Assembly: GCF_000018105.1 (NCBI RefSeq)
Contig: NC_009931.1
Coordinates: forward strand, 122,962 to 154,961
Length of the DNA stretch: 32,000 bases
Origin: Acaryochloris marina MBIC11017
GTDB taxonomy: Bacteria > Cyanobacteriota > Cyanobacteriia > Thermosynechococcales > Thermosynechococcaceae
Direction of reading: 5' to 3'
Shown here: positions 2,911 to 26,146 of the stretch, in pieces
Layout: each line of letters starts with the position of its first letter
Numbering within the stretch: the stretch's first letter is position 1
The notes under the pieces: model-generated
Database searches by the model: none
What the model saw: only the letters and a program-made list of their open reading frames with translations
What the model was told of the DNA's origin: nothing
Position numbers and translations under genes: made by a program

Positions 2911-2920
2911 GGCCAACATT

Positions 2921-3388
2921 ATGCGTTTACCCCCTCGTCTCCTTGGCCCCCTCGTGGGCTTGAGCTTCACCCTCGTGAGTACGCCTTCCGTCCAAGCAAA
3001 ACCCGTGAACACCAAAGATACCGTCCAAATCCCTTCAGACTGGCTGAACAGCCGAGTCTATGAGGGCTTAAAAGTCGATCCTTCGGGAGTGATCATCACC
3101 TTACGCACGGGGGAAAAAGTGGGAGGGCTGACCATCCTGCCTTGGCAGCATGTGGATGTCAAACCCCTCAATGGTCAGCTTTGTGCGGGGGGTGGTCAAT
3201 GTAATGGCACGGCCCCAACCATCATTCAGCTTTTTCGCAAATCCCCCCAACGGGTGAAGGGCTTAGTCTATAACGCTGATGGCACCTCCTTGATGACCAT
3301 CACGACCAATGCCGGGAATACCTACCAGTTTCGGCTAGAACCCACCTCAGCAGCCCCCAAGCGCAAGATCAATATCAATCCCCAGTGA
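2921..3388 (+). CDS. Secreted protein of the conjugation operon, unknown function
   Basis: The ATG at 2921 gives MRLPPRLLGPLVGLSFTLVSTPSVQA|KP, a classic signal peptide. The listed ORF start at 2759 would overlap the upstream gene by 150 nt and adds non-protein-like sequence. Confidence 0.6.
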   Translation: MRLPPRLLGPLVGLSFTLVSTPSVQAKPVNTKDTVQIPSDWLNSRVYEGLKVDPSGVIITLRTGEKVGGLTILPWQHVDVKPLNGQLCAGGGQCNGTAPTIIQLFRKSPQRVKGLVYNADGTSLMTITTNAGNTYQFRLEPTSAAPKRKININPQ

Positions 3389-3392
3389 ACCG

Positions 3393-6005
3393 ATGAAACG
3401 TCCTCTCACCCTTCTGATCGCAGCGGGCCTGGTGGTTAGCCCCTGGTCCCTGCCCGTAAACGCTCAGATTGTCCGTCCCGCCAACCGTCCGACTTCTCGG
3501 CAGCAGGCGGTGAACCAATCCAGGCCCACCACACCCCAATCGACGACCTCACCCGGATTGATTTACTCCCCGTCTGGTGAACGGGCACCCAGCTTCTCTC
3601 AGATGTCTGGGGCCACGGCACCTGGACAGATTGAGCTTCCTGCCCATGTGCAGATGGACTATCAATTTAGTCGGGCGTTCCCGCGAGGCGCTACCCCGGA
3701 CCAAATGACCAAATGGGGCGATATCCCCAATAATCCCCAGTTTGTCGGGTTCCATAAAATGACCCTCCGAGAGTTAAGCCGCTCCTCTGGCCAAGACATC
3801 GCTGGCGTTCCTCTGAATGAGATTGATTTGATACAGGGGATGACCGTGGAAGAGGTTACGCAACTCTATCACGGCTTGGAAGATAAGCCCTTGGATCAAG
3901 CCCCCAAAATCCTCCAAATTGCCGCTGGAATCACCAATGACCCCAAAGGCACCCTGAAGCAGTCCAAAGGGGCAGCGCTCACCTTTGGTCAAAAAGCGTT
4001 GATCGCGGAACTCGCCAAGAAACCCGCTCTAAAAGGGATTAGCCTAGAGCGTTTGTCTAAAGGGGATTGGGGCAATATCCTCACCCCTGGTGAACAGGGT
4101 GAAGTTGCCAAGATTCTCACGAAAGTCAATGGCAAGATTCCCTTAGAGAAGCTATTCCCCATGACCCAAGGGGTGATCGTGGGGGATTGGGAGAGCGTGC
4201 GGAAACAGGCCCAGGCCGAAGCCACTCGCCAAGGTTCCAAGGTACTCGTCAAGGAGCTGATGAAGAATGAGAAGTTCCGCAAAATGCCCTTGGGTTCCTT
4301 GACCCTAGAAGAATTGGACCTGGAAGAAACCTTGCCAGGGTTGATTGATCAGCCCATCGCCACGATCCCCAAGATTGCCGATAAGTATCTGTCCGACATT
4401 CCCGGCATGTCTGAGGTGCCCGTCGATCATCTGCCCTTTGACCTGAAGTTTACCCCCAGCAAAGACGATGTTATTGCCCGGATGGATGTCGCCTATGCGG
4501 GGCCAACGGAAACCCCCATTACCCGTGTGATTTCGGGCGGTACAAAAAACCAGAAGTTTAAGCCTGAACCGTGCCTACAGCAGCGCTGCTCCCATTTCGA
4601 GCTAGACAATGTGGATGGGGGTGGTCCGCCCTCGAAAGTATCGGGGAAAGCCTGGGTGGCGGGCAAAGACCAACCTACACCGGGCGGTAAAGGCTTTCTC
4701 GCCCTCGTCAATAACGGCAAAGAACCTGCGGGGATTGTCCCTTGGACCACCGCTGCCCATGTCAAAATCAGCCTAGAGAATATCAAGGAAGGGGGTAACG
4801 GAGAACCGGCTTCCGCTCAGCTCTGGGCACATTTCCAGTTCTGCAAAAAGGTGCCGCTGTTGGGATTGCAGTGTACGCCCCACTTTATCCCCTTTCCCAC
4901 CCCGTTTAAGTTAAAAGAAAAATCATTGATGCTGATTGCCACTAGTGGGGGGCTACCTGCATATCTGCAGAATGCCCGCAATCAGCAGAACTTCTGTACC
5001 CCAGCCGTGGCGAATGCACTCCAGGCGAATGCATCCCAAGGCAGTGCCAGCGATACTGCCGCTGTATCCAGTCCCTCCCCAGATCAACACATCGCCCCAG
5101 CCACCTCCAACCAGGCGGACCAGAACCTGAGACAGTACCTAAAACGGATTGCGGCGGGAGAGAGTACGGGGGGAACGGATTGGCGTCAGCATCCTGATAC
5201 GGGGGCATACGGCGTCTATCAATTTACTCCAGAATCCCGCGCTACCATGCTGCGACGCACGGGGATAGATCCCTGGTCGAAGGATCGGGCGACGGCGGAT
5301 AAAGCCGCTGTGTTCTGGATTCAGATGATTGGCGGAGAGCAAGGGGTGGACCTTCTCGGCACCATCCAAAAAGGGGACTTTGCCAAGGCGGATCAGATCC
5401 TCAGCCCCAAGCAGTTCACCTCTCTTCCCGGTGGTCCAGAGCAAAGCAAAATTTGGAATAATCCTCAGAACCTGCAAGTGTATGGTCCCAACGGGAGTGC
5501 CCCTGATGGCGCACCCACGGGGGCAACGGGGTTTGGTCCCTGTGCCTCGACGAGTGGGTTCATTGGCCCAGAAGGGGATGGCATTGCCACGGGCCGACTG
5601 AAAAACCCAACACCTGGGGCCGTTATCACTAGTGGCTATGGACCCCGAGTACCCCCCGCCCCTGGAGCCTCATCCTTTCATGCAGCGGTGGATCTAGCGT
5701 TACCCTTGGGTGCGCCTATTCTCGCCGCTGATGGTGGAGTCGTTGAATATTCAGGGGTGAAAGGAGGGTATGGGAACTACATTTTAATCAATCATGGCAA
5801 TGGTTTAGCGACCTGGTACGCCCATAACAACGCCAATAACGTCCGGGTCGGCCAAAAGGTCACCGCAGGCCAGCAAATCGGCACGGTGGGGTCTACAGGA
5901 ATCAGTACGGGACCCCACCTTGACTTTGGGGTGGTGGATGGCTACAAAGCTGGAAACCTTTACTCAGGTCAAGCCGTTAACCCTCGTAAACACGTTCGTT
6001 TTTAG
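3393..6005 (+). CDS. Secreted bifunctional cell-wall hydrolase: lysozyme/transglycosylase-like domain plus M23 (LytM) peptidase domain
   Basis: 870 aa with signal peptide MKRPLTLLIAAGLVVSPWSLPVNAQ. A muramidase-type motif AAGESTGG...GAYGVYQF lies at approx 5150-5230. M23 motifs are HAAVD (5679-5693) and GSTGISTGPHLDF (approx 5887-5930), with NHGNGLATWYAHN between them. Confidence 0.85.
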   Translation: MKRPLTLLIAAGLVVSPWSLPVNAQIVRPANRPTSRQQAVNQSRPTTPQSTTSPGLIYSPSGERAPSFSQMSGATAPGQIELPAHVQMDYQFSRAFPRGATPDQMTKWGDIPNNPQFVGFHKMTLRELSRSSGQDIAGVPLNEIDLIQGMTVEEVTQLYHGLEDKPLDQAPKILQIAAGITNDPKGTLKQSKGAALTFGQKALIAELAKKPALKGISLERLSKGDWGNILTPGEQGEVAKILTKVNGKIPLEKLFPMTQGVIVGDWESVRKQAQAEATRQGSKVLVKELMKNEKFRKMPLGSLTLEELDLEETLPGLIDQPIATIPKIADKYLSDIPGMSEVPVDHLPFDLKFTPSKDDVIARMDVAYAGPTETPITRVISGGTKNQKFKPEPCLQQRCSHFELDNVDGGGPPSKVSGKAWVAGKDQPTPGGKGFLALVNNGKEPAGIVPWTTAAHVKISLENIKEGGNGEPASAQLWAHFQFCKKVPLLGLQCTPHFIPFPTPFKLKEKSLMLIATSGGLPAYLQNARNQQNFCTPAVANALQANASQGSASDTAAVSSPSPDQHIAPATSNQADQNLRQYLKRIAAGESTGGTDWRQHPDTGAYGVYQFTPESRATMLRRTGIDPWSKDRATADKAAVFWIQMIGGEQGVDLLGTIQKGDFAKADQILSPKQFTSLPGGPEQSKIWNNPQNLQVYGPNGSAPDGAPTGATGFGPCASTSGFIGPEGDGIATGRLKNPTPGAVITSGYGPRVPPAPGASSFHAAVDLALPLGAPILAADGGVVEYSGVKGGYGNYILINHGNGLATWYAHNNANNVRVGQKVTAGQQIGTVGSTGISTGPHLDFGVVDGYKAGNLYSGQAVNPRKHVRF

Positions 6006-6015
6006 GAATTTAACG

Positions 6016-6390
6016 ATGAAAAAATTGCTTACTACCTTACTGATTCTTTCTGCTGTTGCCCTTCCGAGCCAAGTGCTAGCTCAGAACAGCAGCATTGATG
6101 CCTCCTGCATTCCTGAGACGGGATCTCGCATCCCCGTGGAAAAGGCCGTTATTTATGCCACGACCACCCAGGATGCCACCACCTATCACTATGTTGTTCT
6201 CCACCCTAAAGACCTGTCTCAGTCTCTCGGTGTGGTGTTAGTCGAGGTAACAGGGGGCCAATGCAAAGGCCATTTGGTTGATTTTGCGGGGAATACCTTG
6301 CCCTTTGAGCAGTTTGTCCCCGCCCCCGTCGCTAAAGAATTGGTGGATCAAGCCACACGCAATTGGAACAACCGCCAAACCAGCCCTTAG
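6016..6390 (+). CDS. Small secreted protein, unknown function
   Basis: The ATG at 6016 gives MKKLLTTLLILSAVALPSQVLA|QNSS, a signal peptide with no lipobox Cys. The listed start at 5920 would overlap the hydrolase gene. Confidence 0.55.
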   Translation: MKKLLTTLLILSAVALPSQVLAQNSSIDASCIPETGSRIPVEKAVIYATTTQDATTYHYVVLHPKDLSQSLGVVLVEVTGGQCKGHLVDFAGNTLPFEQFVPAPVAKELVDQATRNWNNRQTSP

Positions 6391-6437
6391 TAGTGCCACC
6401 GCCATTTTGTTAGAGTCCTATCTCGATTGGTAAGGTT

Positions 6438-8213
6438 ATGCATCCTCCTATCGCACAAATCCAGACCTCACAAACCGAGTCTACCCCCACCCACCCCCAT
6501 CCACCGCAGCCTAGTACTCCGTTTGGGGGAATCAACCCCCAACTTTTGCTGATGGGGGGATGCATGGCATTACTGTTGGTCCCCATGCTGTTTCAAAAGT
6601 ACTCCGGCCAACGGAAAGGCATCCTTGCCCGTGCCCGGTTCGCCACGGCCCGTGAGATCCATCAGTCTAAAATCTATGCCCGCAAGCTGATTCAGCAGAA
6701 CAAGCACAATAAGGTGGCCCTGTGGATTCAAGAACCCAAGGGTATTATTATCAATCACCAGAAACGGCAGATTGAGATTCCCCCAGACAACAACTCCTTT
6801 TACGTCAGCCATTTAGAAGAGCATTCCCTGATCCTCGGCAATACGGGGTCTGGTAAGAGCTATTCCGTTCTCGATCCATTCAAGCGATCCGTGATCAAGC
6901 GGGGGCAACCGCTGTTTGACTATGACTACAAAGGCCATGAAGAATCCCCCCATAGCCTCGCCCCTAGTTCCAGTATTGCGGGGTATGCCCTGGATCATGG
7001 CTATAAGGTCTATGTGGTGGCCCCTGGCTTTCCAGATACCGATAAATTCAACATCCTCGATGTCTTGAAACATCCCCAGGATGGGGCCAATGCCTTTCAA
7101 CTGTCCAACGTCCTCAATGAGAACTTCAAGCTCTCAGCTAGTGACCAAGGGGCTGATTTCTTCAGCTTAGCGGGCAACCAGCTAATCCAAGCCCTATTTA
7201 TGCTCGTCAAAGGGTCAGAAGTCTGCGCAGATATTGCCCTAGCCCATAAGATCCTCGCCCTTCCCAACTTTTCCAAGCGAATTGCCGAGGTGCAGCTTCC
7301 TCAGTATCAAAAAGTGGCCTTTGATAACTATCTGGCGTCTGCGGATTCCCCCGAAACCGCAGCCTCTATCGCTACGACGGCCTCGATCATGTTCTCTCGA
7401 TTTATGATTCCAGAGGTGCTGTCTACCTTCTGTGGTCAGAGCACGATGCCCCTGGAGATTACGGGGCGAACGATGGTGATCTTCCGACTCAATCCCCAGA
7501 TTGAGTTTGCGGTGGCTCCCCTTTTGGCCTCGATCATCTATCTGATGATTAACCGCAATATCTACATGGCCCGAAAAGATCCCGTCCATTTCTTCTTGGA
7601 TGAGGTGCAAACCCTCAAAGTCCCCAGCCTGTCTAAGGTCTTACAGGTGGCCCGTTCAGCGGGGGGCTGCTTCTACCTGGGCACCCAAGGCATAGACCTA
7701 CTGGAGAGTACCTATGGGGTGAAAGAAACGGAAAATATTCTCACGGGTTGTAAGACCGTGTTTGTGGGCCAGCTCAGTCACAACGGCACCGCTGAATATT
7801 ACAGCAAGTATTTTGGCATGGAGGATATCTCCTACAAGAATAAGTCAAGAAGCCACGGGAAAGGAGGCACTAACCGCTCCGAGGGAGACCAGCAGAACAC
7901 CCGTCCCCTCGTGGAAATCCAACAATTGCTGGAGTTACCCCAAGGCCAATTCTATTGCCGCAATCGGGGTATCGGTAATAAAAAAGCCGTCCGTATACCC
8001 GTCCACCATCAGACCGTTATTCCCCCTTGGGAGCTGAGGGATATGGACAAAGGAAAGCAAACCTGGAAGAAATACCGGAAGCTACGGATCAAACAATCCA
8101 AGATTCAACCCCTGACGGACCAGGATCTAGAAACCCGCGAAAGCGTTGCCCGCTCCCTGGTGCCAGATCATGCCAATGTCGCTGCGGGTCAACAAGCCGC
8201 CGTGAGGTACTAA
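6438..8213 (+). CDS. Type IV coupling protein (VirD4/TraG-family ATPase)
   Basis: 591 aa with an N-terminal TM segment (LLLMGGCMALLLVPMLF). Walker A is GNTGSGKS (6837-6860) and Walker B-like HFFLDEVQ is at approx 7587-7610. A downstream GTQGIDLLESTYG block resembles the QSxxQL..YG block of TraG/VirD4 proteins. Confidence 0.85.
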   Translation: MHPPIAQIQTSQTESTPTHPHPPQPSTPFGGINPQLLLMGGCMALLLVPMLFQKYSGQRKGILARARFATAREIHQSKIYARKLIQQNKHNKVALWIQEPKGIIINHQKRQIEIPPDNNSFYVSHLEEHSLILGNTGSGKSYSVLDPFKRSVIKRGQPLFDYDYKGHEESPHSLAPSSSIAGYALDHGYKVYVVAPGFPDTDKFNILDVLKHPQDGANAFQLSNVLNENFKLSASDQGADFFSLAGNQLIQALFMLVKGSEVCADIALAHKILALPNFSKRIAEVQLPQYQKVAFDNYLASADSPETAASIATTASIMFSRFMIPEVLSTFCGQSTMPLEITGRTMVIFRLNPQIEFAVAPLLASIIYLMINRNIYMARKDPVHFFLDEVQTLKVPSLSKVLQVARSAGGCFYLGTQGIDLLESTYGVKETENILTGCKTVFVGQLSHNGTAEYYSKYFGMEDISYKNKSRSHGKGGTNRSEGDQQNTRPLVEIQQLLELPQGQFYCRNRGIGNKKAVRIPVHHQTVIPPWELRDMDKGKQTWKKYRKLRIKQSKIQPLTDQDLETRESVARSLVPDHANVAAGQQAAVRY

Positions 8214-8217
8214 GTTC

Positions 8218-9123
8218 ATGAAAATCACCTGTCCTATCTGTAAATGGCCACTCTACCTCCCCGAGCAGCCCCAAGAAGGGGAGGAAATGGGTTGCCGTCA
8301 TTGCCACTCTTCCTTTGCCATGACTCACACCCATGTGGTGGAGAGTTGGGCCGTGACGACCCAGCATCAAATCCCGTCTGCTTATCTCGCCATTCTATTT
8401 ATAAGGGAAGGAAAAACCCATCGCGTCCAATTGGACCGAGATATCCCACCGGGATTAAACTGCATCGCCTTGACTCCCCTCCACGGTTTGGGTAAACACC
8501 AACCCATCCTGCTGTTGGACCTGCAAACCGCTGGGGTCTATCCATTGACTCATCCTCGGCGGCTGTCCCGCCGTTACCAGCTCCAAGGGGCACTGCTGAT
8601 CGCGGCTATAGCCGCAGGGATAGGCATGGAGTTAAATCTCCCCCAAAACGTGACGACAGGAGCTGGAATTACCAGCAGCTTGGCGGGTGCCTATGGGATT
8701 GCGCGATTCAATCATGGGAGGGAACGGGATCCGAAACGACGGACCCAGTTGTTACGCTCTCAAAGCCTGCTCAAGCAGAGCCACCAACTCGGCGAACGGG
8801 TGCGGGAACTGGAGCGAGAATTGTCCCAGTCCCAGACCTTGAGCCAGCAGTTGCAGGAGCTGTCCAATCGGCCCACCGTCGTCGGCCAGAGTAAAGAGAC
8901 AATTTTGCAGAGAGGTCATAAGGTCATTGAGGGCAAAAATGCCGTCCTGCAACGACTGATTGACTGTTGCCGCAACAGCAAGGATTTGATTGATGTGGAG
9001 CTGATGGCTGCTCAGTTGAGTGAGCAGTTACCGGACGGCATCGATCAGCAGCTTTTAGCCTACCAAAGTGAAATTGAGAAGCTGGAAGAAGAGTACGAAG
9101 GGATGCTTCTCACGACCGTTTAG
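8218..9123 (+). CDS. Zinc-ribbon / membrane / coiled-coil protein, unknown function
   Basis: 301 aa with an N-terminal CPICK...CRHCH pair, hydrophobic Gly-rich segments (GALLIAAIAAGIGMEL, GAGITSSLAGAYGIA) and a Gln/Leu-rich coiled-coil C-terminus. It starts 4 nt after the coupling-protein stop. Confidence 0.55.
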   Translation: MKITCPICKWPLYLPEQPQEGEEMGCRHCHSSFAMTHTHVVESWAVTTQHQIPSAYLAILFIREGKTHRVQLDRDIPPGLNCIALTPLHGLGKHQPILLLDLQTAGVYPLTHPRRLSRRYQLQGALLIAAIAAGIGMELNLPQNVTTGAGITSSLAGAYGIARFNHGRERDPKRRTQLLRSQSLLKQSHQLGERVRELERELSQSQTLSQQLQELSNRPTVVGQSKETILQRGHKVIEGKNAVLQRLIDCCRNSKDLIDVELMAAQLSEQLPDGIDQQLLAYQSEIEKLEEEYEGMLLTTV

Positions 9124-16479: not shown

Positions 16480-18468
16480 CTATCTAAGTCGTAGTTGCTG
16501 GTGCGATTCTAGCTCCATGCTGGCGAAGTGCTCAAGGAGCATTCGGTGGACAAATATGTAGCCACCGCCAACTTTTTGAAGGAAGAGGCGATCAGCAGCG
16601 TAATCCAGGAAGCGGGCGTAGTTCCAGGGGATATGTCCCATGCGGTAAAGCATTAAGCGGAGTGTGAAGTGTCTTAGGCAAGTAGTGCCACCACCAATCA
16701 GCCCAAAAAACAGCCCAGCACTTACCCCAAAAAACACCCCAGAAAGCAGCGACTTCTCAATTACCCCAAGAATTACCCCAAGAATTACCCCAAAATTGGC
16801 CCCAAAATTCAAAGCATTAATGGCTGACTTCCAAATCCCCTGGTTCGGTTGAAATGTATTCAACATGTCTGGGCCTCTGAGTCCACCAATAACAACACTA
16901 AGCAGCCCAAGAATCAGCCCATATCTCAGCCCAAGAATCAGCCCTTCAATCAGCGCATTAATCAGCCCCCAATACATTTCAAAACTCAGCGCAACAAGCA
17001 GCCCCAAAATTGGCCCCAAAATTAGCCCCAAAATTAGCCTTTTACGAAAAATACTTTTTGCTTCTCTCCAAGACCATTTCAAGGTTTCTACGGTTTTGAT
17101 GTTTCCTGAAAATCCAACGATCAGCCCAATAATCAGCCCATAACTCAGCCCAATTTTCAGCCCCTGAAACAGCTGATACCTCAGCTCAGAAAACAGTTCA
17201 AACGTCGATGCAAACTTCAGCTCTAAAAGCAGCCCAAAAATCAGCCAAGAACTCAGCGTAGTAAGCAGCCCAAAAATCAGCCCAAAAAACAGCCCAAAAA
17301 ACAGCCAACTTATTAGTCCACTTTCTAGACGATAGCGAAGTTTTTGAAACTTAGTCTGAAAGAAACTTGGCTGTATTCTCTCTATCAAAAACACAGTTTG
17401 AGATGTTCGAGACATTTCTTGAGCTAACCAGATCAGCCAAAGTGTTGCTTGTTCTTGGAGGTAGTTTCGAGTAGTTCCCTTACGTTGGAACATACGTTTA
17501 ATATAGGTATCAAACAATCGTTGGCGAAAGATTTCTGATGTAACTGACCTTGGAAGGTTATCCCAGTCAGAACCCTGATAGGCCAGGCTCATAATGCTCA
17601 ATATCAAAGGTGAGGAAGCAAAGGATTTAATTTCAGAGTTCTGGTTGACTATTGCTCGCAACGCTATTAATGATTCCCCAGCTTGCTCAAGGTACTCATC
17701 GATTTGCTGAGGGGTTAACGGTTTAACGTAGATGGCACTTCGCAAAGTTACCTTATCAGAAAGGGCTTCGTAGTCATGAATACGGCTACATACAACCATC
17801 TCGGTACGACCATGAGCTTGAAGGAATTGATTTAAAGCATGTACACAGTCATTCCGATGCTTGGCCTCAACTTCATCCAGGCCATCCAGTAATAGGATTA
17901 ATTGTTCTTTTACGATCCAAGACTTCCCCAATGACTTAGAAACAGTATATTTATCAAAAAGTTCCTCTACTAACCACTCCTCAATGGATTTTCGTTGTCT
18001 AGACCAAGACGAGAGATTGAGCACCACTGGCAAAGGCTGATTTAGATCCGCTTCTGTTCGAGAAATTAGACTTTCCGCTAATTTCAGTAGGGATATTGTC
18101 TTGCCCGCACCTGGCTCTCCCAGAATCAGTAGTGTCCGTCCAGCACCGATATCCTCAAATATATGTGTGGCTGATGTGCCTTCTGGAAAAGCTTGCTTAG
18201 ATTCAGGAGGGAATTCCTCGACACCTTCTAGTGGAGTATAAACATAGTTGTTTCTCTCTTCCAACCCTAATTCAATCAACACTTGGCTATGCAGCGACTT
18301 CGCTAAGACTCCATCAATCCAGAATTGTTGAACTTTACTGAGTAGAACCTTGCGCCATCTATGCTCATCCCGGCTTAAAGGTTTTGCTGTGTCCAAAGGA
18401 GCTTGAGGAACCTTAACAGTACTAAATACATTGACAACCTCAGCATTTTGAATCTGAGTTACCTCCAA
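16480..18468 (-). CDS. NACHT-family STAND NTPase with a C-terminal polytopic glycine-zipper membrane domain
   Basis: Walker A GEPGAGKT (18097-18120), Walker B LILLLDGLDEV, then CSRIHDY. Roughly residues 380-590 (approx 16690-17340) form repeated GLxxGL hydrophobic segments. The tail is FLDYAADRLFLQKVGGGYIFVHRMLLEHFAS. The listed start is a TTG; the frame stays open upstream to an ATG at 18564 except for one TAA at 18544-18546. Confidence 0.85.
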   Translation of the reverse strand: MEVTQIQNAEVVNVFSTVKVPQAPLDTAKPLSRDEHRWRKVLLSKVQQFWIDGVLAKSLHSQVLIELGLEERNNYVYTPLEGVEEFPPESKQAFPEGTSATHIFEDIGAGRTLLILGEPGAGKTISLLKLAESLISRTEADLNQPLPVVLNLSSWSRQRKSIEEWLVEELFDKYTVSKSLGKSWIVKEQLILLLDGLDEVEAKHRNDCVHALNQFLQAHGRTEMVVCSRIHDYEALSDKVTLRSAIYVKPLTPQQIDEYLEQAGESLIALRAIVNQNSEIKSFASSPLILSIMSLAYQGSDWDNLPRSVTSEIFRQRLFDTYIKRMFQRKGTTRNYLQEQATLWLIWLAQEMSRTSQTVFLIERIQPSFFQTKFQKLRYRLESGLISWLFFGLFFGLIFGLLTTLSSWLIFGLLLELKFASTFELFSELRYQLFQGLKIGLSYGLIIGLIVGFSGNIKTVETLKWSWREAKSIFRKRLILGLILGPILGLLVALSFEMYWGLINALIEGLILGLRYGLILGLLSVVIGGLRGPDMLNTFQPNQGIWKSAINALNFGANFGVILGVILGVIEKSLLSGVFFGVSAGLFFGLIGGGTTCLRHFTLRLMLYRMGHIPWNYARFLDYAADRLFLQKVGGGYIFVHRMLLEHFASMELESHQQLRLR

Positions 18469-18577: not shown

Positions 18578-19012
18578 CTATAGCAGGAAGCCTGATGCAA
18601 CTCCTAGCCAGGGAGTGACTTTTTCCACGATTGGTTTGATCTTTTTCCAAAGATTGGACCCTGCTGCTACAGTCTCACCTGCTTCTTTGAGAACAGTAGT
18701 AGCCTTTTTAAGGCTTTTGGCTGCGTAGTCTTTGTCAGGTTCCTCAGCTTGAACTTCTTCCTTAGCTGATTCCAGGTGTCGAAGTGCTTTGCTGGCTTGT
18801 TCTTTTGGTAGTTCTGTACTCTTTAATAAAGCTTCCAGTTGGGTGATGAGGTCAACGACATCAGCTTGCGTTAGTTGAACTTCCGTTCCATCTGTCCCAA
18901 TCTGTTGGGTCTGGGTCACCGTCTGATCGCCTCCAGCTATTCCACCTATCTGGACGTTGGAGTTTTGACCACCGCTGATACTGATAGATTGGGAAGGCTT
19001 TTCTTCTGACAT
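18578..19012 (-). CDS. Small tail-anchored protein with G/Q/N-rich N-terminal motif (candidate partner of the NACHT protein)
   Basis: 144 aa. The N-terminus is SQSISISGGQNSNVQIGGIAGGDQTVTQTQQIG, followed by a charged helical middle and a C-terminal hydrophobic segment VTPWLGVASGFLL. It ends 13 nt before the ATG at 18564 of the NACHT reading frame, on the same strand. Confidence 0.7.
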   Translation of the reverse strand: MSEEKPSQSISISGGQNSNVQIGGIAGGDQTVTQTQQIGTDGTEVQLTQADVVDLITQLEALLKSTELPKEQASKALRHLESAKEEVQAEEPDKDYAAKSLKKATTVLKEAGETVAAGSNLWKKIKPIVEKVTPWLGVASGFLL

Positions 19013-19167: not shown

Positions 19168-22100
19168 TCACCGACGAGGAGATCGCCGTTGATGCTGTTG
19201 CTGCTCCTGGGTAATCTCATTCGCCAACTGCCCCAGATCCTCAAATTTGGCTTGCACCTCTGGGTTGTCAGACATCCGTAAGATCTGGCCCACCTTGACT
19301 TCCAGAATCACCTGACCCGTGTGCTTATCCGTGATGCTGGTATAGCCTCTGCCTGACCTGAGCCGCCAGTTGTCCCCTTCAGAAACGTAGTCGCCCCCTT
19401 GAGCCTCTTCTTGGCCGTAAGCGTGAGTAATCACTCTCACCGCAGCACAGGTTTGACTTGCGAGGCTGTTCCGTTGATTCTCAACCTCCTGATCTATTGG
19501 CTGAGTTGTTTTCTGGAATTCAGAAAGCGTCTGAGCCTGGGCCGTCACATGCAGGAGATGGCCTGCTCGATACCTCAGCAAAACTCGATTTGACTCTTTC
19601 TCCCTAATCATCGTGGTTAGTGGCCCGTGGGTCATAACCCAGGATGGGGTGAAGTAAACCCTGACTCGTCCATGCTGAGAGCCATGTTTTTGAGCCATCG
19701 CTTGGACAATAGGCACCATTGCCATACCAACCTCGGTCTTATGCTTTTGAAGCTCAAGCGCTTTCTCCATTAGGTATTCGCGCTCATAGATGTGCTTAGA
19801 TCCAGCCTCAATAAACCGATACCCATCTTCAAGTTCTCCTCGACGGCTAGCCTCCATGAACACCTCTAGATCCATCCGCTCTGGGGCAAGATCCCCATCT
19901 CGACGCTGAACGAACTCCACCAGCTTGCGATAACGGTATTGATAATGTTTGAGGGCAATTTCTTCAAACGGTCTGGTCCTTGAAATCGCCAGCTCTAATT
20001 GCTTCGGACCCGCCCCCACAATCAGATCATCAACGCCTTTATGTTGGTTATCCCATTTAGAAGCGGATACCGAACAGCCTTCTTTGACCAACAGTTCACC
20101 CGCTCTCACTAAATCCTGACGGACATTCACGATGGTTAAAGGCTTAGTTTCTTGGTCATATAGGAAATTGAAGTGACGACCGGGAACAGCGAAGACAGCC
20201 AAACCAGGATGGAGTTGTCTTATAGGAAGTTTTTTCTTATTGTCATCATTGGCCCGGTATCCACCATTCACACCCGGCAGACCAATCGTGACATGGCCTT
20301 GAGAGTTCACCGCTAGTGTCTTCTTGCCACCCTCCGTAATATTGATGGGAATCTGGGGATTGTCCTTGACCACTGACCAAAAATGCTTCCCTGGCCTGGG
20401 TGTGATGCCGTACTGGTCATAGATCGTTTGGGCTAACCACTCAGGGACATGAGTTAAGAAAATCTCTCGGCTGACATCCGCTGGATGCTCATACTTTTGC
20501 GGTCTGTTCCTGCGGTAATCCATGCGAGGATGATCGGGTTTGAGGCTTCCCCAAAGGGATTCCGTGGGTTCTGGGTCATCCAATGAACTAGCGAGAACCC
20601 CCGCTTTAATCCAGAACCCCCCATCAGGAACATCCCTTAGCTTGGCAAACTCCTCAGAAATCTCTTTAACGACAACCTGCCCTGCGCCCATATCCTCAAT
20701 CTTCGTGGACAACAACCGTTCCAAGATTTCTTGTCCCGCGATGGTTTCACAGTTCAACTCAGCGAGATCTGGGTGAATACCACTGCCTGCTAGCAGCTCC
20801 TGCCAATGCCCCTCAGCAATGGGGAAGGATGCCTCCATGAGTTTTTTGGGGTTTGTTTCTGGAGTCCAGAACACCTTAATGAATTTGGGCTTAGGTGTGA
20901 TGTTGATCCCCTTCCCTTGTAATCGTTCAGCTAGGGTCTTCAATTCCTCCGTGATCGGTCCCTCAGCCACGGCTCCAACCTCCCGCATGTCCCTCACCGT
21001 CTGCCCCAACTCCTGCATCTCTAGGGTTTGGCCAATCATCTGCTGGACTTGCTTCACGGCCTCGTCAACCCCCTCTAAATGTTGGGTGATGGCAGCCTCA
21101 GCCCGCCGCTGGGCGATGGCCTCAGCAAGATTCTTCATCCCTTCATACTCGTAGATAGAGGGCTGTGACTGTAGCTGTTCTATGGAAGTCGCAAGTTCAG
21201 CTAGGGAAGCTTCTAGTCCACTATTGAGTAAGGTTTTCTCTGCATTAATGTCGTGAATCGTCCCCGCTAGTTTAGCCATGCCCGCATAGTCCGCTTGATT
21301 CACCTGAGCCACTTGCTGAGTTAAGCGATCCAGTTTGTCCAGCAGTCCCAGTTGATCCAAAGCTTGCATGTCTTGGTGGGTTTGCCATGTCTGAGCCAAC
21401 TGACCCATCCCTTGATATTGATAGGGCTGAATGGGGAGTTGCTCTAGGGCTTCCGTTAACTGAGCAAGAGATTCGTATATCTCTCTCTGGGCCTGTACCG
21501 TCTGAATCTTCTCGGCTAAGGCACCCATAGACGGATAGATAGGAGAGTTCAGGCGTTCGACCTGTTGCTGGATCTGCTCCAGAACACCGCTCTCACTCAG
21601 CGCCTGGATGTTCTGATGTTGAGTGATGGTTTTGGCTAATCCAGCCATGCCTTGGTACTGGTGACCCTGGAGCTGCTGAATTGTCTCCGCTATCGGCGCA
21701 AGGGCATTCACGAGCTGCTGTTGGGATTGCCATTCTCGGATTGAGCGAACCAGCCTTTGCATTTGGGGGTAGAGAACGGGTTGAGCCTCTGCCCGTTCCA
21801 AGGCTGCGTCGAGGTGTTCTACGGCATCTGGTTGGTCGGCCTCCACCTCAGCGATTGCATCCGTTAGCCCTCGACTCGCCTGCCATTCCTGCAGGCCCGC
21901 ATCCATCGCCCGGATCTGCTCTCGGTAGGTAACCTGTTCCACTGCCTCATCAATCTGGTCAAGGACGTACTGAATCTGCGTGAGATGTTCCGTGAGGTCT
22001 TGTTGTTCTTGCCGTTGGGTGATCGATGCCGCGAGGTTACCCATGTCATAGGTCGGGGGCTGGGGTTCCTCCATGCCTTCGGATAGCTGGTTAACTGCCT

Positions 22101-25100
22101 GATCCAATCCACTCGCTACGATCAGCTGAGCATTTTGATACGCGGTCCAGGATCGGGCTAATCCTGCGAGGGCGTCTCCGAGCTGGGAGCGCTCTTGCCG
22201 TTGGTGGGCATCACTGAAGTCAAGAGACCGCTGTTCTGGAGTTGTTGTTTGATGGACTTGATCTCCTCTGCCGCCGTCTCCACTCCCGCGTTCAGTTGCA
22301 GGTAAGTCATACCGGAGAAGTTCATCTTCTGGGTCAGATCCTCCATTGCTTTCGTTAATTTGGCGATGGATTCCGCCATCTTCTCCGACTTCTGGGCGTC
22401 CAAGGCGTCTTGGAGCTGTTCGATGAAGTGCTGGAGTTCGCCCCTGACGAGATGGGGTAACGTCCCCAACTCCTGGTTGACGCGGAGGTTCAATGTATCG
22501 ATTTTCTCCTCCACTCCTTGAACGGACTGACTGAGAATTTCCATCACCGTGGCTTGGGTTTGCTGTGCGTCCAGGATAGTCTTCTGGTGCTCCAGAATCG
22601 TGTCCAATTTGGCTTCCAGATTGCTCATGATAATCCTTTAATAATTCAGTGGCATTGTCTTGAGCGATACTTTCACTGACTCGCTCATCTAGTTTTTTGA
22701 AACTCTGGCAATAGATAACAATCTCATGGGATTGCCGTGAAATCTTGACGTAGAAAGGCTCTTTAGAGGAGGTGGGATCATTGGTGCTGCTGATGACCAC
22801 CCGCTTGCGACTTTGCCCTTGGGCACGGTGGGCCGTATGCACCAGCGCATAGTCCAGGCAAACGGGATGATCGAGGGAGATAGTGCGGTGCTGGCCCTCC
22901 TCATCTATGACATGCAGGGTGCTGCCCTCGATGGCTACTACCTTGACCTCATCTCCGTTAGACCATTTCTGCTCCTTGTTGTTATGGGTCCAGCGCAGAT
23001 CATCCCCCACGGCGACATTTAGATTTTGAACCTCATAGACCTCCTTATGCTTGTACTTGCTGGGATTGAAGTGATAGAGCCGCCCCCCTGAACTGCTAAC
23101 AAGCAGCTCATCTCCTAACCTACGCTCCACCCGGTAAAGCTTGTCTTTCTGAAGGGGCGTACTGCGATAGTTCTTCTTCTGAAGCTGGATATAATCCCCC
23201 ACTTGGTAGAACTGAACCAGCCGTTTTTGCTCAATCGTCAGATGGCGACTGGCCAGTTGCTGGATATGGTGATCCTCTTCCCCCAACGTCCCCTCTGCCT
23301 TTAGGCCCTGACGGAGTAAGGACATGATCGCTAGTCTTTCCTTGTTCGTGCCCGTGACGAGTAGCGTCTCGGCCCGTTCTTCTGGGCTGAGCTGAAGATA
23401 GTAGTCAGCAAAGGTTTGCTGTCGAATATCTTCGTCTTTGATTTCTTGGATATAGCCATGCTCTTTTAAGAGGCTGACGGCATTTAGCCCCTGACCTTTG
23501 GCAATGAGAGAGACGGCCCGCTTTTGCACGGTGTTGCGCTGGCGCACAATCTGGCTGATATGGAAGGTGGTTGCCCCCGCCCGAATCAGAGACCGCATGG
23601 GGGAACCCGCTGTAATACTGGGGTTTTGCTTGGTATCTCCCACAAATAGAACACGGGCATTCGCTGCCCTGGCCCGACCCAGCAATTCCAACATTTGCTG
23701 TGACCCAATCATCCCTGCCTCGTCTACAATCCACAGTTGATGGGGGGCTAGACTCGGCTTGCTCACTAAGAGCTTGGCGACGGTATTGGTTTTGATACCC
23801 AGTTCCTTGCCTAACACCTTAGAGGCTTTAGTCGTGGGAGCATACCCTTGGATATCGAGGTTGAGATGAGTCAGAACCTGTTTCAATTGGCCCAACGTCC
23901 GGGTTTTCCCCACCCCCGCTAACCCATGCCAGAGGATAAATTGATCTGAGTGGGCCAAGGTTTTAGCCACTGCTTCTAGTTGCCCGACATTTAAACCGCT
24001 CTCTTTGAGCAGCTCCCTAACGCTGTACTCGGACATTAAGGGGGTTTGGGTTTGCCGTCCTAAGTCCCAGCTCTGATGAATGGCTGCTTCTCGCTCCAAT
24101 GCCGCTACGGTGGTGAATCGTTCCGTATTGTTCACCTGATCTCGCAGGGTCAGCAATTCCTCACAGGCTGACATGGCTTGGCTTATATCCTCGAAGCGGA
24201 ACTGGCGGATATTGCCGAAAACAAACTGCTCAATCTGCTCACGGGTAAAGGTAATGGAGCGTTCACTAAGATGGTTGATGGCACTGTGCAACGCCGTCGT
24301 CACCTGATCCGGTCGATACTCAAATTGAGGACTGAGATCCGGTTGAGGCATCCGGTAGTCTAAGGTTTGGGCCGCTTGCTGCCAGACGGCTTGTAAATCT
24401 GTGAGCTTCTGGCCCGGTTCCTTGGCTTTACGGCTTTTAAGGCAAGCGGTTTGCTTGTTTGCGGTGGTTGCTTCTAAACCATCTTTTTCGAGCTGTTTAA
24501 AGATCTGCTGAGAGCGCTTGGAGAAGGTTTCAACCTGCTCACGAGTAATTCCCTCAATCTCAAACGCATCCTTCGTGGCATAGATCTTGTATCCCAAGTT
24601 CTGAATATTCTCAGCCAGGTATTGCCGATAGATTTGCCCCAAGCATTCCTGCATATACATCAGGTCATTCTTACGGCTGCGCCAGGTGCCGTCTGGCATC
24701 TGGGTCGTATTCATCACTAGGGCATGGGTATGCACCTGTGGATCATTGGCCCTGGAGGTGTGGTGGTTAATCAGGGCAATCACCAGATTCTTCGTATTGA
24801 GGGTATGGCGAACCCCCCCGATCATCACCCGTGTTTGTCCATATCGCTCTTGGACGATATCCAGGGTGCGCTTGACGGCTTGCAGGTGGGCATCAAATAG
24901 GCGATAGTCACAGCCAATATGCAGGACCATTGAGGCACTTTTAGGCATGGAAAAAGTGAAGTCATCCCCCACCCGTTCCTTGTGCTTTTCGTTCTTGGGA
25001 AAACCCCTCAGCCTCTCCCCTTCCAGGTTGTAGCCATAGAAAACTTTTTTAAAGTCAGCCCGGTGGACATTTCCCTGTAAACCGAGGGCATAAGCGCCAT

Positions 25101-25296
25101 AGCCATACCATTGAGCGCGGACGAGCTTTCGTAGAGCGGCTGCTTTGGATTCAGCCTCACTGACCGTTTTCCCCTTCCCCTTCTTCTGTACCGACTTGGA
25201 AACATCAGGGCTGTAGTAATCCACCAGCCCCTCATCCTGGAGGTAATAGTCTTCTTTTTCTTTGCAGCCCGTCTGCACGGGCACAATCTTCAGCAT
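19168..25296 (-). CDS. MOBF (TrwC/TraI-type) relaxase - helicase - coiled-coil repeat - Toprim (DUF3854-like) fusion protein
   Basis: 2042 aa. The N-terminus carries YY...DYY, FTFSMPKSAS and the His triad HHTSRANDPQVHTHALV (approx 24724-24765). The helicase has Walker A GLAGVGKT (approx 23902-23925), LWIVDEAGMIG, VLFVGDTKQ and YALVHTAHRAQGQSR. A low-complexity linker and ~8-9 degenerate 40-45-aa repeats follow. Toprim-like INITEGGKKTLAV ... KGVDDLIV lies at approx 20000-20420. Confidence 0.9.
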   Translation of the reverse strand: MLKIVPVQTGCKEKEDYYLQDEGLVDYYSPDVSKSVQKKGKGKTVSEAESKAAALRKLVRAQWYGYGAYALGLQGNVHRADFKKVFYGYNLEGERLRGFPKNEKHKERVGDDFTFSMPKSASMVLHIGCDYRLFDAHLQAVKRTLDIVQERYGQTRVMIGGVRHTLNTKNLVIALINHHTSRANDPQVHTHALVMNTTQMPDGTWRSRKNDLMYMQECLGQIYRQYLAENIQNLGYKIYATKDAFEIEGITREQVETFSKRSQQIFKQLEKDGLEATTANKQTACLKSRKAKEPGQKLTDLQAVWQQAAQTLDYRMPQPDLSPQFEYRPDQVTTALHSAINHLSERSITFTREQIEQFVFGNIRQFRFEDISQAMSACEELLTLRDQVNNTERFTTVAALEREAAIHQSWDLGRQTQTPLMSEYSVRELLKESGLNVGQLEAVAKTLAHSDQFILWHGLAGVGKTRTLGQLKQVLTHLNLDIQGYAPTTKASKVLGKELGIKTNTVAKLLVSKPSLAPHQLWIVDEAGMIGSQQMLELLGRARAANARVLFVGDTKQNPSITAGSPMRSLIRAGATTFHISQIVRQRNTVQKRAVSLIAKGQGLNAVSLLKEHGYIQEIKDEDIRQQTFADYYLQLSPEERAETLLVTGTNKERLAIMSLLRQGLKAEGTLGEEDHHIQQLASRHLTIEQKRLVQFYQVGDYIQLQKKNYRSTPLQKDKLYRVERRLGDELLVSSSGGRLYHFNPSKYKHKEVYEVQNLNVAVGDDLRWTHNNKEQKWSNGDEVKVVAIEGSTLHVIDEEGQHRTISLDHPVCLDYALVHTAHRAQGQSRKRVVISSTNDPTSSKEPFYVKISRQSHEIVIYCQSFKKLDERVSESIAQDNATELLKDYHEQSGSQIGHDSGAPEDYPGRTANPSHGDGNSQSVRSRSGGENRYIEPPRQPGVGDVTPSRQGRTPALHRTAPRRLGRPEVGEDGGIHRQINESNGGSDPEDELLRYDLPATERGSGDGGRGDQVHQTTTPEQRSLDFSDAHQRQERSQLGDALAGLARSWTAYQNAQLIVASGLDQAVNQLSEGMEEPQPPTYDMGNLAASITQRQEQQDLTEHLTQIQYVLDQIDEAVEQVTYREQIRAMDAGLQEWQASRGLTDAIAEVEADQPDAVEHLDAALERAEAQPVLYPQMQRLVRSIREWQSQQQLVNALAPIAETIQQLQGHQYQGMAGLAKTITQHQNIQALSESGVLEQIQQQVERLNSPIYPSMGALAEKIQTVQAQREIYESLAQLTEALEQLPIQPYQYQGMGQLAQTWQTHQDMQALDQLGLLDKLDRLTQQVAQVNQADYAGMAKLAGTIHDINAEKTLLNSGLEASLAELATSIEQLQSQPSIYEYEGMKNLAEAIAQRRAEAAITQHLEGVDEAVKQVQQMIGQTLEMQELGQTVRDMREVGAVAEGPITEELKTLAERLQGKGINITPKPKFIKVFWTPETNPKKLMEASFPIAEGHWQELLAGSGIHPDLAELNCETIAGQEILERLLSTKIEDMGAGQVVVKEISEEFAKLRDVPDGGFWIKAGVLASSLDDPEPTESLWGSLKPDHPRMDYRRNRPQKYEHPADVSREIFLTHVPEWLAQTIYDQYGITPRPGKHFWSVVKDNPQIPINITEGGKKTLAVNSQGHVTIGLPGVNGGYRANDDNKKKLPIRQLHPGLAVFAVPGRHFNFLYDQETKPLTIVNVRQDLVRAGELLVKEGCSVSASKWDNQHKGVDDLIVGAGPKQLELAISRTRPFEEIALKHYQYRYRKLVEFVQRRDGDLAPERMDLEVFMEASRRGELEDGYRFIEAGSKHIYEREYLMEKALELQKHKTEVGMAMVPIVQAMAQKHGSQHGRVRVYFTPSWVMTHGPLTTMIREKESNRVLLRYRAGHLLHVTAQAQTLSEFQKTTQPIDQEVENQRNSLASQTCAAVRVITHAYGQEEAQGGDYVSEGDNWRLRSGRGYTSITDKHTGQVILEVKVGQILRMSDNPEVQAKFEDLGQLANEITQEQQQHQRRSPRR
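22158..22628 (-). CDS. Embedded ORF in the +1 frame of the relaxase linker: 156-aa coiled-coil protein (possible relaxosome accessory protein)
   Basis: The ATG at 22628 is preceded by AAGGA (22638-22634) with a 5-nt spacer. An in-frame TAA lies three codons upstream of the ATG. The translation is protein-like (MSNLEAKLDTILEHQKTILDAQQ...). By hand count, 115 of 156 codons end in G/C. The relaxase frame over the same bases is Gly/Arg/Pro/Ser low complexity with many A-ending codons. Confidence 0.5.
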   Translation of the reverse strand: MSNLEAKLDTILEHQKTILDAQQTQATVMEILSQSVQGVEEKIDTLNLRVNQELGTLPHLVRGELQHFIEQLQDALDAQKSEKMAESIAKLTKAMEDLTQKMNFSGMTYLQLNAGVETAAEEIKSIKQQLQNSGLLTSVMPTNGKSAPSSETPSQD

Positions 25297-25305
25297 CGGA
25301 AAAGG

Positions 25306-25611
25306 CTACAGAAAGCGAACGAAAAGCCAGGTTGCCCGGCACCAAGCATGGATCAGGCGTTGTAGCAGATTGGGATATCTCCCCCGTTGATTCTGTTCCG
25401 TGACGGTCTTTGCTCCACCTAGCCACTGGTGAATAAAGGTATGGGAGCCAGGGGACAGGGGGAGCAAATCCAACCAGATCCACTCATGGCCATAGCGTTT
25501 GTAATTCGTGTGATGGACATGGGCATAGCCATAGGTTCTGACCCAAGGACGCAGGGCACAGCGGTACTTCCAAGCAGCTAGGGTGCGTTTGCGAAGTTTG
25601 GCGTCCGTCAT
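25306..25611 (-). CDS. Small HNH-like protein with degenerate Cys ligands, immediately upstream of the relaxase gene
   Basis: MTDAKLRKRTLAAWKYRCAL...AHVHHTNYKRYGHEWIWLDLLPLSPGSHTFIH follows the HNH pattern (C..C ... HH..Y...G.E...DL..LC..CH..IH), but most Cys positions are replaced. The ATG at 25611 overlaps the stop of the preceding mini-ORF (TGATG). It ends 10 nt before the relaxase ATG. Confidence 0.45.
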   Translation of the reverse strand: MTDAKLRKRTLAAWKYRCALRPWVRTYGYAHVHHTNYKRYGHEWIWLDLLPLSPGSHTFIHQWLGGAKTVTEQNQRGRYPNLLQRLIHAWCRATWLFVRFL

Positions 25612-25748
25612 CACCACATGGATCTAAAAAACATCGCCGTAATGACGGTCGTTAATGTCCCCGCCCATCCAATGAGGCGCATCAGTGGTGTGTATCGACA
25701 TACCAAATAAAAAATAACTAGACCGACGAAGATGTCAAAGTGACTCAT
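25611..25748 (-). CDS. 45-aa hydrophobic mini-protein (not in the supplied ORF track)
   Basis: On the minus strand, AAGGAG lies 7 nt upstream of the ATG at 25748. The translation is MSHFDIFVGLVIFYLVCRYTPLMRLIGWAGTLTTVITAMFFRSMW, with two hydrophobic segments. Its stop is coupled to the next ATG. Confidence 0.4.
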   Translation of the reverse strand: MSHFDIFVGLVIFYLVCRYTPLMRLIGWAGTLTTVITAMFFRSMW

Positions 25749-25964: not shown

Positions 25965-26047
25965 TTCCCTGGATCTGCCCCGTTTCTGCCCCAGAATGTC
26001 CCCAGGCTGCCCCATGTTTGCCCCAAGTTGTCCCAGGTTTGCCCAAA
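25965..26047. repeat. Iteron array A: 7-8 direct repeats of TG(C/T)CCC with 10/11-bp spacing
   Basis: Repeat cores start at 25976, 25987, 25998, 26008, 26019, 26029 and 26040, plus a degenerate TTCCCT at 25965. The array is preceded by the inverted pair TTGGGGC-agc-GCCCCAA (25939-25955). Confidence 0.75.
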
Positions 26048-26088
26048 ATGAGCATATTGAAAGCTGAAAAATTGGGTTGAGAAAAAGT

Positions 26089-26146
26089 TGCCCCAGATTG
26101 TCCCTGAGTTGCCCCGGATTGTCCCCAGTCTGCCCCAAAAGATCCC
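26089..26146. repeat. Iteron array B: 5-6 direct repeats of TG(C/T)CCC with 10/11-bp spacing
   Basis: Repeat cores start at 26089, 26099, 26110, 26120 and 26131, plus a degenerate copy near 26141. TGCCCC and TGTCCC alternate, giving a 21-bp super-unit. About 40 bp of AT-rich DNA separates it from array A. Confidence 0.75.

Follow-up and report, generated by a model that had tools for sequence, protein, structure and literature searches.

Analysis of a stretch of 32,000 nucleotides from Acaryochloris marina MBIC11017 (contig NC_009931.1, positions 122,962 to 154,961; hereafter the window) revealed a gene of 156 codons that lies on the same strand as, and in the +1 frame within, a gene for a MobF-family relaxase. 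The relaxase gene (the host gene, 2042 amino acids) occupies positions 19168 to 25296 of the minus strand and the nested gene positions 22158 to 22628 of the same strand. Overall, our analysis indicates that the nested sequence is very probably a real protein-coding gene and that both frames of the shared segment are used. Both open reading frames (ORFs) are conserved, the direction of selection is evident from the substitutions that separate relatives, start signals precede the nested ATG and a free-standing homologue of the nested gene exists. From the sequence we infer that the small protein would arise by internal initiation.

The nested ORF starts at offset 2668 from the relaxase start, which places it in the +1 frame. 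Its start codon ATG was found at positions 22628-22626 and its stop codon TAG at positions 22160-22158. A Shine-Dalgarno-like AAGGA (22634 to 22638, minus strand), located inside relaxase codons K-D, is separated from the ATG by the five-nucleotide spacer TTATC, and a TAA (22638 to 22640, minus strand) closes the +1 frame three codons upstream of the ATG. Read in frame 0, the same bases form a linker of the relaxase (host amino acids ~890-1047) that is poor in hydrophobic residues, contains no stop and reads HEQSGSQIGHDSGAPEDYPGRTANPSHGDG... The segment contains 10 stops in its third sense frame and 3, 4 and 7 in the antisense frames. The guanine-plus-cytosine (GC) content at codon positions 1/2/3 is 0.62/0.38/0.56 over the entire relaxase gene; within the segment, the relaxase frame has 0.74/0.55/0.32 and the +1 frame 0.55/0.32/0.74. 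The hydrophobic fraction is 0.27-0.31 in the nested protein, 0.10-0.23 in the relaxase linker and 0.30 in the remaining relaxase. These results bear out the original prediction, made from the sequence alone, of a 156-codon +1 ORF with its own AAGGA, spacer and ATG, a TAA three codons before it and a stop-free relaxase frame encoding a low-complexity peptide; its manual tally of G- or C-ending codons, about 115 of 156, agrees with the third-position GC of the +1 frame. The nested gene is omitted from the RefSeq annotation of the plasmid, and the exact 156-amino-acid sequence was not found among 15 billion predicted proteins. No terminator was found near the nested start, where the RNA fold z-score is -1.1.

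Search with the 156-amino-acid product (tblastn) revealed matches in four other Acaryochloris plasmids at 33-37% identity. Each match lies under an annotated mobF, in its +1 frame at relaxase amino acid ~865-890, and comprises 153-156 codons, with GAGGA and a five-nucleotide spacer before the ATG. Homology to the Acaryochloris profile (hhalign E=1.4e-6) was also evident for a +1 ORF in a Nostoc relaxase of 1945 amino acids, and the product of this ORF matched 17 Nostoc plasmids (tblastn); Nostoc punctiforme PCC 73102 carries a copy on pNPUN01 (L013:5495-5899). The Acaryochloris and Nostoc matches are nearly always under an annotated mobF. The family is recognisable across two cyanobacterial orders. 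The eight Nostoc host genes examined all carry the ORF in their +1 frame, with an ATG and, 6-9 nucleotides upstream of it, an AGG/AGGAG motif. Frame analysis covered 13 plasmid host genes, and in all 13 the +1 ORF has an ATG and a stop and the relaxase frame is open across it. Inspection by eye of 19 nested homologues found an AGG/GGAG-type motif 4-10 nucleotides before the ATG in every one, and in relatives the upstream stop of the +1 frame precedes the ATG by 3-23 codons (3-6 in the window and many of them). The +1 ORF, for which the original prediction had proposed a comparison of orthologues, was open with an ATG and a Shine-Dalgarno-like motif in all examined relatives except decayed or error-prone copies.

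When one genome per species was scanned with the Nostoc-type profile, 39 species-representative loci were obtained, from Nostoc spp., Roholtiella, Nodularia, Chlorogloea and one metagenome-assembled genome (MAG) of the Chroococcidiopsidaceae, some of which are near-duplicates of plasmids already counted. The relaxase frame was open across the nested ORF in 37 of the 39 loci, where the third frame contained 11-22 stops (6-22 over the species loci and the 13 plasmid genes). Host ORFs of these 37 loci are mostly 950-2200 amino acids long, shorter ones occurring only at contig ends and, with 306 amino acids, in L067. Both exceptions are MAG contigs, one with a single stop and the other with five stops and a truncated ORF. 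An earlier genome scan with the Acaryochloris-type alignment gave no match, both its patterns and its confirmation by tblastn having depended on the divergent sequence of the window. Among 1.84 billion representative proteins, a profile search identified 14 small relatives; on the five metagenome contigs checked for these (L022-L025, L034) the relaxase frame is open over the ORF, which extends from the helicase end to the repeats that follow. Another profile search of predicted proteins matched three proteins only, because gene callers rarely call nested ORFs.

A homologue of the +1 ORF was not found in four Acaryochloris relaxases of 1309-1344 amino acids and one Picosynechococcus relaxase of 1250 amino acids. 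The mobF gene of Picosynechococcus sp. PCC 7003 (L008:1914-5666) contains a +1 ORF of 172 codons at relaxase amino acid ~914, which was taken as a chance ORF; its product is basic, not protein-like and dissimilar to the family. Two plasmids of Nostoc sp. UHCC 0302 carry interrupted or divided host genes. An IS1380 transposase splits the relaxase gene of plasmid unnamed3 (L019, 3625-5112 and 5459-5890), and the remnant downstream retains an intact nested ORF and a relaxase frame that continues without a stop into the repeats. The relaxase of plasmid unnamed6 (L020) is represented by two annotated coding sequences, mobF (1430-3658) and a 'DUF3854 domain-containing protein' (3799-8781), the second of which holds the nested ORF and 13 repeat units.

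Differences between homologues were counted by codon position in 37 pairs. In the nested frame they were ordered position 3>1>2 in nearly all pairs, with position 3 the most variable in all 37. In each pair the nested frame had the higher amino-acid identity (for example 0.71, compared with 0.57 in the relaxase frame, and 0.64, compared with 0.48). The substitution pattern of the nested frame therefore indicates that amino-acid constraint sits on the +1 product. In a scan along the host gene alignment, third positions of the relaxase frame vary most in almost all intervals outside the overlap; inside it, they are the least or near-least variable and first positions are the most variable. In the Acaryochloris set, variability at relaxase position 3 was 0.06-0.14 in the core intervals of the overlap and mostly 0.2-0.6 elsewhere; in the Nostoc set it was 0.11-0.22 in the overlap and ~0.3-0.5 elsewhere. 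The phase switch of the substitutions coincides with the boundaries of the nested ORF. Comparison of the window with its closest relative (contig L027) found 36, 13 and 64 differences at nested positions 1, 2 and 3, respectively. In this pair 8.5% of relaxase third positions differ inside the overlap, compared with 49% and 55% in the 900-nucleotide flanks, and the suppression of synonymous variation for which the original prediction had suggested testing is thus present.

The openness of both frames was assessed by fixing the peptide of one frame, redrawing its codons from the gene's own usage and checking the other frame, with 2000 trials. When the 156-amino-acid protein of the window was fixed, the relaxase frame gained 7.3 stops on average and was open in none of the 2000 trials. 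The same redraw for each of the 13 plasmid genes gave 7-15 stops in the relaxase frame, which again was open in none of 2000. Since 7-15 stops are expected in the relaxase frame under synonymous recoding of the nested protein, the results indicate that both frames are under selection. When the linker peptide was fixed instead, the +1 frame was open in 7% of trials for the window and in 7-52% of trials for the Acaryochloris genes, and P was <=0.015 for all eight Nostoc genes. The claim that double openness is not expected by chance thus holds for the window when the nested protein is fixed, whereas openness is only mildly unusual when the linker is fixed. Resampling of the window indicates that codon choice in the +1 ORF avoids breaking the relaxase; that the +1 ORF is itself meaningful had to be established from relatives. 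T occurs at nested third positions with a frequency of 0.06-0.11 compared with 0.23-0.31 at relaxase third positions elsewhere, and in nested copies it is never present before a codon starting AA, AG or GA (34-55 such contexts per gene). This avoidance of third-position T reveals the mechanism by which selection keeps the relaxase frame open.

Free-standing homologues of the nested gene were found on four contigs. One of these (P0009) is present on three contigs from three JGI samples (L029:1379-1765, also L030 and L031); its -1 frame contains 6 stops and its +1 frame 14, its GC content by position is 0.56/0.34/0.54, its frequency of T at third positions is 0.18 and six of its T's stand in contexts forbidden in nested copies. 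The closest relatives of P0009 (P0005 and P0011) are nested copies. P0009 and a partial relaxase gene (AAA_30) are arranged tail to tail; in this relaxase the sequence ENATDLVE at the helicase end runs directly, without a linker, into four Y-x-G-M...SGL units. A second free-standing relative (P0012) occurs on one contig (L035:5001-5348) in a different context, adjoining a gene for a 1087-amino-acid protein with a zinc-finger-like N-terminus and a P-loop. P0009 and P0012 have 5-6 stops in the frame equivalent to the relaxase frame, normal third-position GC and third-position T of ~0.18-0.19, and free-standing homologues begin at the same methionine as the nested copies. The existence of a free-standing homologue indicates that the small protein is encoded by an independent gene, and that the skewed codon usage of nested copies results from the overlap.

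The nested ORF was also found to have a constant neighbour. Repeats were located with hidden Markov models (HMMs) of the repeat units, and in the window an array of helical Y-x-G-M...SGL units (host amino acids 1044-1424; 21025 to 22167, minus strand) follows the linker. The nested ORF ends at host amino acids 1046-1047 and the first repeat unit starts at 1044; in the Acaryochloris genes, including the window, the first repeat-unit match begins within 0-3 residues of the end of the nested ORF. The Nostoc relaxases contain an unrelated repeat of 61 amino acids in 2-13 copies, which starts two residues past the end of the nested ORF in eight of eight hosts. The module of nested gene and array follows DUF3854 in Nostoc; in Acaryochloris it precedes this domain and comes after the helicase. 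Neither repeat type was found in the examined relaxases without the nested ORF (four from Acaryochloris and one from Picosynechococcus, 1250-1344 amino acids). The constant juxtaposition of nested ORF and array in three genomic arrangements suggests that the small protein may work with the repeat array. The resemblance of the +1 product to the downstream repeats proposed in the original prediction was not detectable: an HMM of 23 nested-family sequences found no match at E<=10 in 13 relaxase proteins.

Structure prediction for the nested product with AlphaFold2 (3 and 11 sequences) gave two long helices, residues 2-78 and 81-132, followed by a polar, low-confidence tail (residues 133-156) that is predicted to be disordered. 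Our best guess, in functional analogy to MobB of RSF1010, is that the product may serve as an accessory subunit of conjugation, co-produced with the relaxase and acting with the repeat array or at the interface of relaxosome and coupling protein.

Several observations weigh against a functional nested gene. Taken alone, the window shows +1 openness that is only mildly unusual given the linker peptide (P ~0.07), and the pairs used for the substitution counts are not phylogenetically independent. Because the Shine-Dalgarno-like motif shares bases with the codons of a conserved relaxase motif, L-I/V-G-E-x-Y, the relaxase could partly explain its conservation. One promoter-like site was found near the nested start against 0.8 expected, a result that is neutral for internal initiation. 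The AlphaFold2 models have a mean predicted local distance difference test score of 70-72 and a predicted template modelling score of 0.33-0.34, and the low value of the latter makes the packing of the helices uncertain. The best matches in Pfam-A and NCBIfam (E>=0.01) are far below curated cut-offs and represent coiled-coil noise, and Foldseek against the PDB gave none at E<=0.001, returning only generic helical hairpins at E>0.1.

Selection at the protein level on the +1 frame is silent on how ribosomes enter it, and a programmed +1 ribosomal frameshift near host codon 890 would instead give a truncated relaxase-helicase with a coiled-coil tail and no separate 156-amino-acid protein. Two database proteins (P0008 and P0015) do join both frames. 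However, a shift site could hardly be accommodated between the ATG and the stop that closes the +1 frame so shortly before it in the window and many relatives, none of the nested homologues inspected has lost the ATG or the AGG/GGAG motif and the free-standing homologues share the start methionine, so that we regard frameshifting as improbable. The two chimeras come from contigs with broken relaxase calls and are most likely indel errors: P0015 (L027:7001-10276) lies on a long-read contig of 2x coverage with the relaxase split in two calls, and P0008 (L026:7001-7792) on a contig whose relaxase call is in pieces along the whole gene. Together with P0016 and P0004, which are truncated or frame-shifted, they were treated as indel artefacts and set aside as evidence for frameshifting; all are on contigs with broken relaxase calls, three of them long-read at 2-6x coverage. 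A database protein of L006 likewise switches between the nested and relaxase frames; since such cases on L006, L026 and L027 belong to contigs that either have broken relaxase calls or are short-read Logan assemblies, indel errors are their most likely cause. It is also conceivable that the nested gene is real and that reading through it is unneeded by the relaxase, its relaxase-helicase and repeat/DUF3854 parts being separate products and the open frame 0 incidental. The divided annotation in L020 and the IS1380 interruption in L019 are compatible with such an organisation. Yet the stops expected in frame 0 without selection are absent from 13 of 13 plasmid genes and 37 of 39 species loci, and the avoidance of third-position T is specific to an open frame 0 and is lost in free-standing copies; separate products are accordingly judged decidedly improbable.

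A linker rich in Gly, Arg, Pro, Ser, Asp and Glu seldom makes +1 stops, and the +1 frame might then be open only for that reason, with a useless product. Such a by-product would agree with the frequency of chance openness in the Acaryochloris genes when the linker was fixed, but not with the result of the same test in the eight Nostoc genes. Since the substitution pattern places the constraint on the +1 amino acids and not on the linker, the family is recognisable over two orders and stand-alone copies exist, this explanation is highly improbable. We give practically no credence to an artefact or recent accident, in which compensating frameshifts or sequencing errors, the alternative raised in the original prediction, displaced a segment of the relaxase frame. 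The codon-position composition of the segment does fit the +1 frame and not the relaxase frame. Nevertheless, independent complete plasmids from both Acaryochloris and Nostoc share the frame relation, the start and the stop, as do draft genomes from several genera, dozens of independent assemblies in all, and no intact homologous relaxase carries the helical sequence in frame. Among the 1.84 billion proteins the only long matches were error-type chimeras and one spurious eukaryotic coiled coil (P0013, a eukaryote-like repetitive coiled-coil/kinase protein of 2846 amino acids). An ancient event of compensating frameshifts would simply be the origin of the overlap.

The preferred explanation remains a nested gene of which both frames are used, and expression of the locus may then be pictured as follows. 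Ribosomes starting at the relaxase ATG would read frame 0 through the segment and produce a polar, hydrophobic-poor linker of ~157 residues, which may act as a flexible tether between the relaxase-helicase part and the helical repeat array with DUF3854. Other ribosomes on the same messenger RNA would start at the internal AAGGA-N5-ATG (22628) and produce the two-helix protein of 156 amino acids, stopping at 22158-22160, exactly at the start of the relaxase repeat array. The small protein would bear the amino-acid constraint, and the relaxase frame would merely be kept open, forcing the choice of nested codons. As to origin, we consider it possible, though short of probable, that the relaxase linker is the younger frame: a pre-existing accessory gene would have come to lie within the relaxase gene and been read through in its -1 frame as a disordered tether, a fusion by overprinting, with the small protein and the array forming a co-evolving pair at two relaxase positions in two orders.

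The host gene has the order TrwC relaxase, SF1 helicase, linker, helical repeat array and DUF3854. Pfam analysis supports its membership in the MobF/TrwC family, since an N-terminal TrwC domain (PF08751, E ~2e-69; host amino acids 58-311, 24364 to 25125, minus strand) is followed by an SF1 helicase domain, AAA_30 (PF13604, E 2.5e-54; host amino acids 435-620, 23437 to 23994, minus strand). The DUF3854 domain (PF12965, E 1.7e-43) covers host amino acids 1639-1765 (20002 to 20382, minus strand). Plasmid pREC2 of Acaryochloris marina MBIC10699 (NZ_AP026077.1) is 99.9% identical to the window; its host gene is annotated mobF and the plasmid was typed as conjugative, MOBF and MPF_T, by MOB-suite. 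Directly 5' of the relaxase gene is a small ORF (25306-25617, minus strand) annotated as hypothetical (WP_012168220.1), which contains ...HVHHTNYKRYGHE..., reminiscent of an HNH-type motif, and is without an NCBIfam match. Between the relaxase operon and the divergent genes from 26319, the intergenic positions 25986-26137 contain tandem 11/21-bp repeats with the consensus sequences TGCCCCAAGTT, CTGCCCCAGGTTTGCCCCAAG and AGTTGCCCCAGATTGTCCCC, a candidate origin of transfer (oriT) or iteron-type site. Directly 3' of the relaxase gene are a NACHT-domain gene (16480-18468, minus strand) and a gene for a Gly/Gln-rich hypothetical protein of 144 amino acids (18578-19012, minus strand). A related short relaxase on pREC3 likewise has a NACHT gene after it. 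The window also encodes a coupling protein with a TraM-recognition domain (6438-8213).

The precedent cited in the original prediction is real: in the IncQ plasmids RSF1010/R1162, the mobilization-accessory gene mobB is nested in mobA/repB in a different frame, translated from the same operon, between the relaxase and primase-type parts (PMC2200642). Like the nested gene of Acaryochloris, mobB is a small gene wholly within a relaxase gene on the same strand in another frame, and the two layouts are positionally the same. The likeness is one of analogy only. The host relaxase of RSF1010 is MOBQ and that of the nested gene is MOBF (TrwC, helicase and DUF3854), and comparison of a profile of 17 family members with a MobB reference (WP_010890157.1, L033:1450-1863, from an IncQ plasmid found via its oriT) gave an hhalign probability of 1.1%, indicating that the nested family is not homologous to MobB. 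MobB ends in a hydrophobic C-terminal segment, LWLTVMLASMMPTVVLLIASLLLL..., whereas the nested protein ends in a polar tail. The position between relaxase and primase domains that had been claimed for the nested gene applies to Acaryochloris, where it lies between helicase and DUF3854, but not to Nostoc, where it follows DUF3854, unlike the RSF1010 layout; the nested gene always abuts a helical repeat array.

TrwA of R388 and TraM/TraY of F are small oligomerising helical proteins that are encoded beside the relaxase and aid relaxosome assembly or docking to the coupling protein. By analogy, the role proposed for the nested protein would be of this type, although the genes of TrwA and TraM/TraY are not nested; no sequence or structural similarity to these proteins turned up in the Pfam, NCBIfam and Foldseek/PDB searches.

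Overlapping genes are also documented outside conjugation. As described for overlapping pairs, one frame is skewed in composition and probably disordered (PMC6195259; bioRxiv 10.1101/229690). Same-strand overprinted genes of viruses share with the present case the pairing of an ordinary folded-type protein with a skewed peptide and the suppression of synonymous variation in the overlap; they differ in that viral overprinting concerns compact genomes and yields a separate new protein, whereas here the genomes are large cyanobacterial plasmids and the skewed frame is a linker in a multidomain enzyme of 2000 amino acids. Long overlapping genes of bacteria include antisense pairs in Pseudomonas aeruginosa (PMC8850804) and ano in E. 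coli O157 (PMC5960689). These are likewise long alternative-frame ORFs in annotated genes, disallowed by annotation pipelines. They are antisense, mostly young or narrow in distribution and supported mainly by expression data; in contrast, the nested gene is on the same strand, occurs in at least two cyanobacterial orders, has a free-standing homologue and is known from sequence alone. Literature searches yielded no relevant report of an overlapping gene in relaxases of cyanobacteria or of the MOBF class.

To our knowledge, long same-strand overlapping genes with demonstrable conservation are rare and contested in bacteria, and we know of very little on the transfer of large cyanobacterial plasmids. 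The comparative support obtained here is unusually clean, with both frames open in ~50 loci, the third frame serving as an internal control and a phase switch at the ORF boundaries, and the free-standing homologue shows how the gene appears once the constraint of the overlap is lifted. The results point to a systematic gap in annotation: RefSeq omits the gene, and metagenome pipelines that call it split the relaxase call around it. The overlap also offers a tractable system for studying the sharing of codons by two proteins and the relative age of the two frames. After mobB of RSF1010, the nested gene would be a second, independent accessory gene embedded in a relaxase gene, and co-translation from the relaxase messenger RNA may be a recurring solution. 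With it, the conjugation machinery of the large plasmids of Acaryochloris, Nostoc and their relatives would gain a protein family that has so far escaped annotation.

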